IMG/VR virus record: IMGVR_UViG_2908567220_000001
Span: 1-37,322 of that record
DNA: 37,322 bases
Direction: 5' to 3' (one strand)
Source: a virus
Taxonomy: Duplodnaviria; Heunggongvirae; Uroviricota; Caudoviricetes
Both the position numbers and the translations under genes were made by a program. The notes under the pieces were generated by a model. That model saw only the letters and a program-made list of their open reading frames with translations, had not been told where the DNA came from and searched no databases. Numbering within the stretch: the stretch's first letter is position 1; every line of letters starts with the position of its first letter. Below, piece by piece: positions 17,713 through 35,869 of this stretch.

Positions 17713-17787
<75 letters not shown>

Positions 17788-17790
17788 ATA

Positions 17791-17866
<76 letters not shown>

Positions 17867-18761: not shown

Positions 18762-19048
18762 AAATATCCCTCCTTTCTCCAGATTTCTTGTGTGCGAAAA
18801 ACACCTTCTGCATGCATCAGGCGTAATTCTTCTTTGGTGTAATCGCTGGTTTTTACCCGCCCGTCGATTAGATCGTGGCATGAGCTACAGGCAATCGCCG
18901 CCTGCATATCGTGTGGTTTTGTCGCTGTTCCGCACGTTCCCGCCAGTCGGTAATGCGCCAGCACAGACGTTTCCGGATCGTGATTGCAGTAGCCAGGAAT
19001 TCTGACGGCGCACATCTGCCCCCGCGCCGCTTTACGTAAATCCACCAT
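18758..19048 (-). CDS. nin-region zinc-binding protein (YbcO/DUF1364-like)
   Basis: 96-aa ORF with Cys pairs (CAVRIPGYC ... CSSCH); coupled to neighbours on both sides (TAATG, GTGA). Confidence 0.7.
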   Translation of the reverse strand: MVDLRKAARGQMCAVRIPGYCNHDPETSVLAHYRLAGTCGTATKPHDMQAAIACSSCHDLIDGRVKTSDYTKEELRLMHAEGVFRTQEIWRKEGYL

Positions 19049-19647
19049 TACGCAAACTCCAGCAGCTGCGCGGCCACATTTTCGACTTGTTCCGGAGAGG
19101 AAAATTTACGGAACAGAATCCAGTTCCACAGCACATTCAGAACAGATTTATAAACCTGCTGAAACTCGGTTTCATCCATATTCGCAAAAGCGATGGATTT
19201 CGCCCGACGCCCATGGCTACCGTCCGGATAAAAATGTTCGGTGTAAAATCCAGCCTGAATGGTTACCCACTCGCGGAAAGCCTCAAACGACTTTAGCAAC
19301 GCCGTATCCCGGGTTCTACGAGTCGCAACGGTGTTAAGGTATTGCTCTGCGGCATCACTCAGGGCTGGCGTGTGTTCCCGACCAACTGATTCGCACAGGT
19401 AATCAACGAAACCAGACAGCAGTTCTCGTTCGCGAGGCGTGATCGCCCCACCGACCGGAGTCCAGTAATCGAATCCCAGTTGCAGGAGTTTGAAAAAACG
19501 CTTGTGGAATGCGTAGTTACGCACACGCTTAAAGTCTGCGTGTATCCACTCACCTATTTTGATTTGATGCAGAAAATCGCAACTCTCCGGCGTCGCCGGG
19601 AGAAGTAAACCAGAAGAAGTTTGTTTGACCAGTTGTATATGCGCCAT
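19048..19647 (-). CDS. nin-region hypothetical protein (199 aa)
   Basis: Complete ORF, coupled to the downstream gene; function not assigned from sequence. Confidence 0.7.
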   Translation of the reverse strand: MAHIQLVKQTSSGLLLPATPESCDFLHQIKIGEWIHADFKRVRNYAFHKRFFKLLQLGFDYWTPVGGAITPRERELLSGFVDYLCESVGREHTPALSDAAEQYLNTVATRRTRDTALLKSFEAFREWVTIQAGFYTEHFYPDGSHGRRAKSIAFANMDETEFQQVYKSVLNVLWNWILFRKFSSPEQVENVAAQLLEFA

Positions 19648-19920
19648 TTCTCAATCTCTCGATGGCGCAGTGCAGCAGATGCCAGTTGTTCAGGCTGACG
19701 TATAAAGTATAAATAAACTGGTTCCAGTGTAAAGCCCCCACCTTAATGGAATAAAAACCAAACAACAGATTGCTGGGATACAAACAACGCTTATTATTAA
19801 AAGCGGTTAAACAAATTAAATTTTAATGTTATGCAAATTTGTCAGATCACCATAATATCTCATTTGAAAACCGCTGAAATAACAACCCTATCAGGGTTAA
19901 TCATATTAAGGTGAGTAAAT

Positions 19921-20007
19921 ATGGAAAACAACAAATCTGCACATTACGTTCCTTTTTTATCTGTAATACTTTTTGTTTTATGCTGTGCGTGGGCATTATT
20001 TTTATAA
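19921..20007 (+). CDS. possible small hydrophobic peptide (28 aa)
   Basis: AAGGTGA RBS 7 nt upstream of ATG; MENNKSAHYVPFLSVILFVLCCAWALFL; in the AT-rich region upstream of the IS5-split gene. Confidence 0.3.
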   Translation: MENNKSAHYVPFLSVILFVLCCAWALFL

Positions 20008-20301
20008 AAATATTCACAGATAAAATATACCCGCCAAACCTGGTTAAGTGCGGGTGCGTTGAGGAGGCCTGACACATCAGAGGTGGCGAGGGATTCTTCA
20101 TCATCTAACCAGCAACCTTAACTTTGGGATTCACTAATTTAAGTACGCTAAAGGTGTTAAAACCCCGAGCCACCCAGGGACTGCTTGAAAAGTATATAAA
20201 AATCAATATCAACTATCGATTTTACCTAAATGTTATGATATAAAAAGTTAGCGTATCATTACGCATCCACAATATTCGAAGGTTTCCATATTCAATGTAA
20301 G

Positions 20302-21152
20302 ATGTCGACAAAGGCCTATTATTCTATGGATATCATAACAAAAATCATTGAAGACGCTCAAAAATTACAGTTATCCTCTGCAAATGAAGCTGAAACACGC
20401 CTTAAGATCATAGATCAAATACTCTTTGAAGTATTGAAATGGACTAGGGATGATGTATCGGTAGAAACTCGAGTTAGCGAAGATGGCGAGACTACTTTTG
20501 CTGATTATGTCATTAAAACAGCAAGTACTGCGTTTATAATTGAAGCCAAAAAAATTGGTCAGGCATTCGACACAAAACAATTCGATAGGAGACTGAAACT
20601 CAACAACAATAATCTTTCCGGTCCTTTTGGAGATGCCATAATTCAAGCAAGAGATTATTGTAGAAAACTGAGCATTCAATTTGCTGTTGTAACTAATGGT
20701 GAACAATGGGTTATATTCCCAGCAAATAGAACGGATCAAGTTGCATTCAACTCATCTTACGCAATTGTATTTAACAATTTACAAAGTGCACTTAAAGATG
20801 ACTATACAGAATTTTATGACTTATTATCAAGAAAAGCAGTTATAAACTCTAGCCTTGAAGTTACTTTATTAGGCAACAGGGAAGATCAAATAGAAGAAAG
20901 ACGCTTAAAAAATACAGTCCGTAAAAGTATCTCTTATGATGCAAAGAATCCAATATACCCATTAGTCGAAGAAGCAATTATCACTTCATTTTCAGATACA
21001 ATAACAGAAATCGACAATGATCTTTTTGAAAGATGTTATGTAAATACTCCTGACAGGATGAAATTTGATAGGCGTATTAATATGCACATCTCAAAAAGTC
21101 AACACCTCTTTAGTACGGCGCCTATAAGACCGATGCAAAAAAGAGATGCTAA
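20302..21152 (+). pseudogene. 5' fragment of IS5-disrupted gene: HsdR-N-like PD-(D/E)xK nuclease domain
   Basis: AT-rich ORF; motifs ETRLKIIDQILFEVLKW, FADYVIKT, FIIEAKK, QFAVVTNGEQWVIF; frame runs into IS5 and stops 9 codons inside it. Confidence 0.75.
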
Positions 21153-22347
<1,195 letters not shown>

Positions 22348-22351
22348 CTAA

Positions 22352-23975
22352 TGCTTTTAAAGAATCATTATTACGAGCAAAAAAGAATTCAAAACCTTTA
22401 GCTATTGTTATATTAGGAACTGTTGGCGCAGGTAAAACCACATTTTTACATTACACACGAAATATATCTGCCGCATCGTATTTCGAAAAATCAAATAATA
22501 AACCCTATCCTCATTGGATAAAGGTGGATTTTTTACAATACACGAATGACGAGTCCCCTATAGACTACATTTATAATATAATAAAAAACTATATTATAAG
22601 TGATCCATTTTTTTGCAATTATGAGCTATGCATACAGAACGCATACAAAGATGAGATAACTTCTATAAAAAAAGGACCTGCATTTCTTATTGCGAAGGAT
22701 GAAGAAAAAATCAATCAACTAATTACAAACAAGCTACAAGCTGATTTTGACAAAGTTAAGCCATATGCTGATACTTTAATCAGCTATGCAACGAAAAACA
22801 CACCTGTTTTTCTTGTTGTGGATAACGTTGATCAACTCAGCGAAGAAGTCCAATCTCAAATTTTCACTGATTGTGTAGCATTTTCCCAGAGACTCAAATG
22901 TAATCTTGTTATATCATTACGTAATTCTACATATGTTGAACACCGTAACTCCCCAGCGTTTAACGCATTTGATTTCGATCCTATTCTTATTGAACCACCA
23001 AAAGTAGAGGCTGTTTTATCTAAACGTTTTTTCTTAGCCAAAAATATGCTTGAAGGAGAAGAAGGTGATTTTCTTTCAGATAATGGGATAAGATTTCACG
23101 TTGATAACAAAGCCGATTTAATAAGCTTATTACAAAGCTCTGTTTTAGGAACAGAAATCGGCAATTTACTTGAAGTACTTGCTGCCGGAGACATCAGAAA
23201 TGCACTAAGAATGACAAGAGAATTTATTGAACATGGTTATACAAATCCAGGTAAAGCTATGCGAATATATAGTGAAGGTGGCAACTATATATTGCCTAAG
23301 CATGAGGCTCTCAGAGCGATACTGCTAGGGAACCAAGCTGTATATTCAGAGGCTTATTCATTGGTTGGCAACCCATTTGATTCAAGACTGGGAAGGACCA
23401 ACTTCCAACTTTTGAGACTATTCGTTTTAGCAGCATTAGTCCAATATAGTGCTGATCCTGCATTTCAATATATCGACGGAATTGACATCCGAAAACAACT
23501 TAGAAAAATTGGTGTCGGTGATGATGACTCAATTGCCATACTGCGTGATTTATGTAAATTACGCTTTATAAGCACGGCTGGTCATGATGTACCAGAATTC
23601 AAATCAAGTTTTTATCCTACAAGACTTGGGGGATATATTACTAAGGAGCTAATCAGTAATTTTACATTTGTTGAATGTACTATGATGGACTCATTCATTG
23701 CGAACGAAAAAGTTTGGGAAGATCTAAAAGGATTTGAACGTTTAATTATAAACTCCTCCAGCGATGTAATCAAAAGACTAGAATATAGAAAGGAACGAGC
23801 ACAAATATTTTTTGATTATATGCTAGAACTATATAGTTCGCTGCTTGAGGAAGCCAATAAACGTGTATTACCTAAAGAATGGCGCACCAATCCTTTGCAG
23901 GAAGCTAGATATTCCTTCATTGAAAATCTAAACAAAGCCCTGCAATCAGCACAGAGAAATTACGGGGAAAAATAA
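22352..23975 (+). pseudogene. 3' fragment of IS5-disrupted gene: P-loop NTPase plus C-terminal helical domain
   Basis: In frame with the 5' fragment once IS5 and one CTAA copy are removed; Walker A GTVGAGKTT (22416-22442); Walker B-like VFLVVDNVDQ; AT-rich; terminator follows the stop. Confidence 0.75.
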
Positions 23976-23980
23976 AAAAA

Positions 23981-24002
23981 AGCCACACCTTACGGTGTGG
24001 CT
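23981..24002. terminator. bidirectional intrinsic terminator hairpin (AGCCACACC-TTAC-GGTGTGGCT)
   Basis: Perfect 9-bp stem flanked by an A-run upstream and T-rich tract downstream; between convergent genes. Confidence 0.6.
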
Positions 24003-35393: not shown

Positions 35394-35588
35394 ATGAGAT
35401 ATGACAATATTAAACCATGTCCATTTTGTGGTTGCCCATCAGTAACGGTGAAAGCCATTTCAGGATATTACCGAGCGAAGTGTAACGGATGCGAATCCCG
35501 AACCGGTTATGGTGGAAGTGAAAAAGAAGCACTCGAAAGATGGAATAAACGAACCACTGGAAATAATAATGGAGGTGTTCATGTATAA
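35394..35588 (+). CDS. ralR: restriction-alleviation protein (Lar/RalR-like), Cys4 zinc ribbon
   Basis: ATG at 35394 gives 64 aa; CPFCG...CNGC motif; position after recT. Confidence 0.65.
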   Translation: MRYDNIKPCPFCGCPSVTVKAISGYYRAKCNGCESRTGYGGSEKEALERWNKRTTGNNNGGVHV

Positions 35589-35745
35589 AATTACCGCCAC
35601 TATTGAAAAGGAAGGTGGCACTCCTACTAACTGGACAAGATATTCAAAATCTAAACTAACGAAATCAGAATGCGAAAAAATGCTCTCAGGTAAAAAAAGA
35701 AGCAGGCGTTTCCAGAGAGCAGAAAGTAAAACTGATAAATTTTAA
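35581..35745 (+). CDS. small basic hypothetical protein (54 aa)
   Basis: ATG at 35581 with GGAGG RBS, overlaps the ralR stop; MYKITATIEKEGGTPTNWTRYSKSKLTKSECEKML... Confidence 0.55.
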   Translation: MYKITATIEKEGGTPTNWTRYSKSKLTKSECEKMLSGKKRSRRFQRAESKTDKF

Positions 35746-35869
35746 TTGCGAGAAACTTCAGTCCTCGAGAATTGCATTGTATTCAAATTAAAACTTCATA
35801 GCTGATTATTAATAATCAACATCGGGCGTCAATTTCAGTCTAACATTGGCGCCTGCCAGAGGTGATGCG

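Follow-up and report, generated by a model that had tools for sequence, protein, structure and literature searches.

A conserved 28-codon open reading frame in a portable cassette of Escherichia coli prophages: a probable gene for a small membrane peptide

The open reading frame and its conservation

The IMG/VR virus record IMGVR_UViG_2908567220_000001, analysed here over its whole length of 37,322 nucleotides and referred to below as the window, is a Rac-like lambdoid prophage of Escherichia coli inserted beside trkG. We describe a 28-codon open reading frame (ORF) on its plus strand (19921–20007) and the cassette of ~230 bp to which the ORF belongs (~19782–20010, plus strand). Both lie in the interval 19648–20301, which is flanked by a DUF1367 gene on the minus strand and by a defence-like cargo gene on the plus strand. 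An earlier, sequence-only reading had presented this interval as an AT-rich leader of the defence-like gene and had left the ORF within it as a leader peptide, a small toxin-like membrane peptide or the product of chance. The interval is indeed AT-rich, its GC fraction being 0.362 compared with 0.499 for the window, and the cassette core (19782–20010) is lower still at 0.284. Within the cassette an A/T-rich block is followed by promoter-like hexamers, a 5' untranslated region (UTR), a Shine–Dalgarno (SD) sequence and the ORF.

The ORF begins with ATG and encodes the 28-residue peptide MENNKSAHYVPFLSVILFVLCCAWALFL. The AAGGTGA sequence that had been proposed as its ribosome-binding site is found together with the ORF where the two had been placed, at 19908–19914 on the plus strand, 6 nt before the ATG. 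Residues 1–9 of the peptide are polar (mean Kyte–Doolittle value −1.8) and are followed by 19 hydrophobic residues that extend to the C-terminus; the mean value for residues 10–28 is 2.6 in the window copy and 2.3–2.7 across all of the variants that we collected. These variants conform to the consensus M-E-N-N-[KN]-x-A-H-[YL]-[VA]-P-F-L-S-[VI]-I-L-F-x-x-C-[CF]-x-W-A-[LV]-F-L, and the amino-acid replacements among them are hydrophobic for hydrophobic. From its composition, the product is predicted to be a single-span peptide of the inner membrane. With 28 residues it falls within the class of small (less than ~60 residues), membrane-targeted hydrophobic peptides to which type I toxins belong. 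Of the earlier description as a small toxin-like membrane peptide, the membrane part is thus supported by composition, while the toxin part is left undecided.

Searches of Pfam, NCBIfam and PHROGs with the peptide returned nothing at E ≤ 0.1, and by the same three collections it belongs to none of the described toxin families (Hok, Ldr, Ibs, ShoB, TisB, DinQ, ZorO and others). An exact look-up of four peptide variants among 15 billion proteins gave no match, which is to be expected because the ORF is below the length limits of gene callers. The peptide strings are present in no paper in the literature that was searched, and neither a recent survey of Hok nor the literature on type I toxin–antitoxin systems contains anything resembling the peptide.

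Copies of the locus were assembled in three sets. The first was anchored on the DUF1367 protein and comprised 39 species genomes and 80 viral contigs; the second and third were degenerate-motif matches in viral contigs and in metagenome contigs, respectively. The copies fall into lineages denoted A, A', B, C and D. In the DUF1367-anchored loci, which are unbiased with respect to the ORF, all 54 copies are intact. Counting every copy fetched, start, frame and stop are preserved in 246 of 246, which divide into 23 alleles at the nucleotide level and 18 variants of the peptide. These alleles require at least 39 substitution events; 11.5% of the possible substitutions are disruptive, and the probability of observing none is ~0.009 under neutrality. 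Nei–Gojobori comparisons between deep lineages gave pS values of 0.24–0.62 and pN values of 0.06–0.19, with pS/pN ratios of 2.9–8.0 and Fisher p values ranging from 0.01 to 8.5e-6. The variable sites are distributed over the first, second and third codon positions as 6, 9 and 17. The frame of the ORF is the only one that is open in all lineages, and none of the other frames tested displays a synonymous excess, except for the antisense frame that shares its wobble positions, which carries stops. No insertions or deletions are found in the ORF or between the SD sequence and the ATG, and several are found in the 5' UTR. In all lineages the SD sequence itself is retained, reading AAGGTG, AAAGTG or AAGGTA, and its spacing from the ATG does not change.

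As far as the comparison of alleles can tell, these data show that the ORF is conserved and under purifying selection at the protein level. Conservation in homologous islands, by which the sequence-only reading had proposed to judge the ORF, was found for the peptide and for its ribosome-binding site. A chance origin is ruled out, since the ORF is conserved and always intact and its substitutions are mostly synonymous. Two overlapping ORFs were considered as genes and rejected, a minus-strand ORF of 67 residues (19901–20104) and a GTG-initiated ORF of 53 residues (19911–20072); both frames have stops in other lineages. No ORF of 60 or more residues in the interval 19648–20301 was found to be conserved elsewhere.

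Spread of the cassette and make-up of the interval

The cassette is carried by 1177 of 5426 complete E. coli genomes (22%), with 1246 copies among them, and in every one of these 1177 the annotated feature at its position is 'none'. It is absent from K-12, so that the K-12 small-protein data sets cannot help here, and it is also absent from the true plasmids that were searched. Alleles of greater divergence were sought in the viral contigs by replacing CCT in the motif with other proline codons, and there were zero matches.

The limits of the cassette are defined by the more distant copies. In lineage B, which is ~80% identical, homology to the window stops exactly at the stop codon (position 20008) and the sequence that follows is unrelated. 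In lineage C the homology extends only from ~138 nt upstream of the ATG through 5 nt past the stop (L200 641–870, corresponding to window ~19783–20012), and the cassette is situated in, and followed by, a tail-fibre region in a host other than E. coli. Two further loci (L129 and L244) have the cassette next to a nin block of Rem-like, DUF968, RusA and Q genes and not next to DUF1367. The gene that follows is a convergent hok in ATCC 8739 and Ecol_545 and a convergent S8 peptidase gene in phage 683R6; hok is immediately downstream and convergent in lineages A and A', and lineages B, C and D lack an adjacent hok. The ORF and the A/T-rich block upstream of it occur together in 240 of 242 cases, the exceptions being a copy split by IS5 and an allele missed by the ORF filter. 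Among Rac-like prophages with near-identical DUF1367 genes, some have the cassette and others have an unrelated minus-strand gene of ~80 residues in the slot. Judged from these comparisons, the cassette is portable between genomic contexts.

We also note several rearrangements around the slot. In E. coli strain 3PT, an IS5 element (L246 2966–3889) lies between the promoter-like region of the cassette and the ORF, and in another lineage an IS2 element (L106 1092–2365) lies just beyond the left edge of the cassette; the ORF is intact in both. In the cassette-less classes among L005–L123 (for example L048, L071 and L015), the minus-strand gene of ~80 residues is located between DUF1367 and hok and exists in at least three unrelated versions. 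One locus without the cassette (L111) has imperfect short tandem repeats (ACAAACAATACAA...) ~330–460 nt upstream of DUF1367, between the small minus-strand gene and the hok terminator.

The 650 bp that had been described as the leader of the defence-like gene do have the physical position claimed for them, but they are not a single unit. They are a mosaic of three segments with separate histories: 19648–20010, 20029–20095 and 20096–20301. The first of these is conserved backbone of Rac-like prophages. In a BLAST search of the 5426 complete E. coli genomes, at least 80% of 19648–20301 was covered in only eight; hundreds match from 19648 to ~20095, and 3475 match 20029–20095 only.

The second segment (20029–20095, minus strand) is the 3' end of a hok mRNA. 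Its 67 bp include the terminator hairpin (20029–20055) and are 92.5% identical to what comes directly after the hokD stop codon in K-12; identity to ATCC 8739, in which Hok/Gef is the next gene, is 94.8%. No Hok coding sequence accompanies it, and no Hok-like translation or ORF was found in the window. On this comparison the segment is a hok remnant and not a hok/sok locus, for which the coding sequence, mok, sok and the fold-back elements are required. The remnant alone explains the matches in the 3475 E. coli genomes and in many lambdoid and Stx phages.

The third segment (20096–20301, plus strand) is common only to the few genomes with the same cargo, the others stopping at ~20095. It represents the 5' flank of the cargo gene itself, which was brought in when the cargo replaced a hok locus, and the alignments indicate that the juxtaposition of cassette and defence-like gene arose by this replacement. 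The cargo gene (20302–23975, plus strand) combines a nuclease domain of the HSDR_N type with a KAP P-loop NTPase domain (Pfam, PADLOC) and encodes 816 residues when intact. Comparison with the intact gene in strain KK19-02 (L001) reveals that in the window it is split by an IS5 copy at 21153–22347 with a 326-residue transposase; the cargo gene is probably non-functional in this genome. Other prophages carry other cargo: an ATP-dependent (OLD-like) nuclease and a Dcm methylase in ATCC 8739, an S8 peptidase and an FtsH-like ATPase in phage 683R6, and KilA-N and DUF1971 genes in lineage B. The corresponding slot has the DUF977/DUF1627 replication genes on one side and the DUF1367 or DUF968 nin genes on the other (window ~20096–24000; L002, L003, L004 and L245). 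It is a hotspot of cargo exchange, and in related prophages it contains the KAP-NTPase nuclease, the OLD-like nuclease with Dcm, the S8 peptidase with the FtsH-like ATPase, KilA-N, DUF1971 or hok loci. On these comparisons the cassette is not functionally tied to the downstream defence-like gene. The 'leader' of that gene is an accident of cargo replacement and is therefore no guide to its regulation.

On the left, the cassette is adjoined by the DUF1367 gene (19048–19647, minus strand), which was assigned from its Pfam match (E = 1.8e-96) and from the annotation of identical or related genomes. This is the first gene of a nin-like block that continues with DUF1364, a DUF1133/Q-like gene, two tRNAs and the lysis genes. 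Elsewhere in the window, Rfam matches at gathering level identify, all on the minus strand, the RalA antitoxin small RNA (sRNA) of the ralR/ralA type I system (35587–35766, 219 bits), the ALIL frameshift pseudoknot of an IS3-family element (28020–28136) and, upstream of the lysis cassette, a pair of prophage tRNA genes (17716–17866).

Expression signals and the reading of the locus

Upstream of the ORF there is a candidate promoter (19806–19858, plus strand) consisting of a UP-like A/T block, a −35-like hexamer TATGCA (19830–19835), a 17 nt spacer and a −10-like hexamer TAATAT (19853–19858). Across the lineages the hexamers read TATGCA/ATGAAA and TA[AG][TC]AT, respectively; they and the exact length of the spacer are kept in all five lineages, and the sequence of the spacer diverges. 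The A/T-rich block (19790–19837) is ~87% identical between lineages whose ORFs are ~80% identical. We infer that the conserved block and the hexamers form a promoter with a UP-like element. An invariant 8 bp inverted repeat, ATGTTATG (19826–19833) and CATAATAT (19851–19858; CATAAYAT), brackets the variable spacer and coincides with the hexamers, and this repeat could be an operator or an RNA stem instead of, or in addition to, promoter elements.

In lineage D a 15 bp plus-strand terminator hairpin is found directly after the ORF; what the ORF runs into in lineages A and A' is the convergent hok terminator. Between the ORF and the cargo gene of the window, no terminator was found on the plus strand. 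A perfect 10 bp inverted repeat, TTTTATCTGT (19955–19964) and ACAGATAAAA (20016–20025), joins the central part of the ORF and the 3' flank in a predicted mRNA hairpin (z = −2.2); this long hairpin (19955–20025) exists only in the lineages that abut the hok terminator. The predicted mRNA fold leaves the SD sequence unsequestered.

The ORF is oriented opposite to the early/late operon of the prophage, an orientation that is typical of accessory genes expressed from a prophage. These features suggest how the cassette might work. It would be a moron, that is, an accessory unit of promoter plus gene inserted between backbone genes. Transcription would start at the cassette promoter and proceed through a 5' UTR of ~55 nt and a strong SD sequence into the ORF. 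Because it opposes the early/late operon, expression would be expected from the resident, often defective, prophage, and the lysogen's inner membrane would be where the product acts. Four elements of this scheme are predictions: the promoter, expression from the lysogen, insertion into the membrane and any effect that the peptide may have on the host. As to that effect, a non-lethal modulator or an exclusion factor is a tentative suggestion to which we give somewhat less than even weight, and a type I-like toxin is possible but on the unlikely side.

Two shorter inverted repeats bear on the question of a second, minus-strand transcript. One of them, AACCCT-ATC-AGGGTT (T1, 19884–19898, with arms at 19884–19889 and 19893–19898), is the 6 bp repeat that had been reported just upstream of the ORF, and it lies in the putative 5' UTR. 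A repeat of this size is not beyond chance, as 27 inverted pairs of 6 nt or more are present in a 750 nt AT-rich stretch. Within lineages A and D it displays C-G>U.G>U-A changes, and only in these two does it have a terminator-like score on the minus strand. As a generally conserved regulatory hairpin T1 was rejected, being absent or non-homologous in lineages A', B and C. The other repeat, CGCTT-N8-AAGCG (T2, 19788–19805), is located at the left edge of the cassette and on the minus strand forms a hairpin followed by UUGUUUGU. T2 is kept in all lineages, with 98.6% of cells paired, and two of its five pairs change on both sides via G.U (G-C>G.U>A-U and C-G>U.G>U-A); it is predicted independently by RNAalifold. 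On the minus strand it has a terminator-like score and, in lineages A, A', B and D, is followed by a tail rich in U. Assignment of T1 and T2 to one strand from their G.U intermediates was abandoned, since sublineages favour different strands. In addition, a σ70-like site on the minus strand (TTTCCA-16-TATGAT, 19900–19927) shares sequence with the start codon and with the nucleotides immediately upstream of the SD sequence. Its score is 9/12 for the window as well as for lineages A', C and D, and lineage B has an equivalent site. A divergent or antisense RNA could start from it; the evidence is weak, since the −35 hexamer is fixed by the codons ATG-GAA-A and the region is A/T-rich.

In our view, the ORF is likely to be a genuine, translated and unannotated gene for a 28-residue single-span membrane peptide in a moron-like cassette. 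Several points weigh against this interpretation. The evidence for transcription and translation is indirect and comes entirely from sequence. With only four or five deep lineages, the selection tests draw on a small number of independent substitutions, and the pairwise tests are interdependent. The upstream block matches the ORF in conservation (~87% compared with ~80%), and overlapping non-coding functions could explain part of the signal. The family databases contain no homologue with a known function, a promoter scan of the plus strand placed the site of the small gene under the threshold of the tool, and the peptide was not found in the ribosome-profiling supplements for strain Sakai, for which carriage of the cassette is not established.

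The rival that comes nearest to this interpretation refines it and does not exclude it. It proposes a new module resembling toxin–antitoxin systems of type I, in which a 28-residue membrane toxin is repressed by a minus-strand small RNA, either a divergent RNA of ~110 nt that runs from ~19893 to T2 (19805–19788) and overlaps the first ~27 nt of the mRNA, or an antisense RNA that spans the start of the ORF. The size and hydrophobicity of the peptide fit the known type I toxins, and the cassette is found in accessory slots of prophages beside hok loci. In all five lineages a promoter-like site is found at one and the same place on the minus strand, T2 has its two compensated pairs with G.U intermediates and its U-rich tail, and the non-coding block upstream is conserved no less than the ORF and never found apart from it. 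Set against these observations, the folding energy of the putative sRNA is not significant (z-scores of −0.1 to −1.7), T2 has only 5 bp and no U-tail in lineage C, and the strand of T1 and T2 is unsettled, single transitions favouring one or the other according to sublineage. The codons ATG-GAA-A leave no freedom in the −35 hexamer on the minus strand, and −10-like hexamers are frequent in A/T-rich DNA. The SD sequence is strong and exposed, which sets the mRNA apart from most of those encoding type I toxins; neither the toxin families nor the Rfam antitoxins include anything similar; and no inactivated copies were seen. Rfam searches at gathering and at permissive thresholds gave nothing real in the region, the miRNA, snoRNA and Phe_leader matches being noise. 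The minus-strand hairpins could also be nin-type terminators of the phage early operon. We regard such a module as possible but unlikely. Its wider form is more doubtful again: an unrecognized type I family, with a 28-residue toxin and an sRNA in 230 bp, that would move among the lambdoid prophages of Escherichia and of one or more further enterobacterial hosts and be kept in a fifth of E. coli for stabilizing or protecting a prophage region with anti-phage cargo.

The opposite argument is that the region has only a regulatory or other non-coding role (as a promoter, as an operator or as nin-type terminators analogous to λ tR2–tR4 on the phage sense strand ahead of a Q-like gene) and that the ORF is fortuitous, kept open by constraint on the DNA itself. 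T1 and T2, which resemble terminators when read on the minus strand (the sense strand of the phage), fall between the replication genes and the Q-like block; neither the upstream block nor the 8 bp inverted repeat varies; and the coding case is built from sequence. A non-coding function fails, however, to predict a third-position synonymous excess in exactly the one open frame, hydrophobic-for-hydrophobic replacements, an SD sequence at a fixed distance or a block of homology that ends at the stop codon, and the cassette is found outside the nin region as well; we consider it improbable. Control of the defence-like gene by the ORF, as a leader peptide or upstream regulatory ORF acting through attenuation or translational coupling, is to our mind highly improbable. 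The ORF and the cargo gene are on the same strand in the window, and with no plus-strand terminator between them read-through is possible, but the start of the cargo gene is 295 nt downstream, past the hok remnant, and in the window the gene is itself broken by IS5. Only eight of the 1177 cassette-carrying genomes have this arrangement, and elsewhere the next gene is convergent or unrelated. No alternative terminator and antiterminator structures and no runs of regulatory codons were found, and the Rfam Phe_leader match reaches only 19 bits against a threshold of 55 (E = 1.7). The leader-peptide proposal was rejected because the cassette is followed by quite different sequences in other prophages.

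The preferred reading, that of a membrane-peptide gene in a portable cassette, probably describes a new sequence family: a prophage-borne, moron-like gene for a small membrane protein, common in E. coli and so far without annotation. Should the peptide be produced, ~22% of the E. coli sequenced, reference strains such as ATCC 8739 among them, would harbour a membrane-protein gene that annotation has missed, and this gene sits at the edge of a prophage hotspot exchanging defence cargo. The family would be an addition to the catalogue of small proteins and prophage morons, and a compact candidate for a new type I toxin or for a membrane factor that protects the lysogen.

Comparison with known systems

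The nearest neighbours in position are the hok/sok loci of lambdoid prophages, such as hokD of Qin and hokW of Sp5 (PMC8621323; bioRxiv 10.1101/2025.08.07.668861). The link is one of location: hok is convergent and directly downstream in lineages A and A', and the window retains 67 bp of a hok 3' end. The 28-codon ORF differs in that it lies outside the hok/mok/sok architecture, has no similarity to Hok and, in lineages B, C and D, has no hok beside it.

E. coli also has type I loci with divergent sRNAs, namely shoB/ohsC, zorO/orzO, tisB/istR-1 and dinQ/agrB (PMC3919570, PMC2887945, PMC5066626). The cassette resembles these in encoding a hydrophobic peptide of fewer than 30 residues on horizontally acquired DNA, and in having a short conserved upstream region with a promoter-like site on the opposite strand and a predicted transcript that would overlap the 5' end of the mRNA. 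It differs in that its peptide is without similarity to a toxin family and its sRNA is hypothetical. Furthermore, the putative mRNA has a short 5' UTR of ~55 nt with an exposed SD sequence instead of a long, translationally inert leader, and the cassette is without tandem duplications.

Small single-span membrane proteins that bind larger membrane complexes are well represented in enterobacteria, examples being KdpF, CydX, CydH, PmrR, MgtS and AcrZ, and genes of this kind are routinely missed by annotation pipelines. The predicted peptide is like them in its length and in its layout of a short polar end and one hydrophobic helix. Unlike these proteins, which are encoded in the core genome, usually in or next to the operon of their partner, it is prophage-borne and has no conserved neighbour that hints at a partner.

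Phage morons, in the concept of Hendrix and Juhala, are autonomous cassettes of promoter, gene and terminator located between conserved lambdoid genes; HK97 gp15 and λ bor and lom are examples. The cassette is much smaller than these (230 bp and 28 codons), its promoter activity is only predicted, and the terminator lies outside its conserved block. In other respects it resembles them. The cassette is a small unit that is present or absent between the same backbone genes, and its GC content of 28% contrasts with ~50% in the flanking genes and the window. It opposes the phage operon, with promoter-like elements of its own and, in lineage D, its own terminator, and it is retained in defective prophages.

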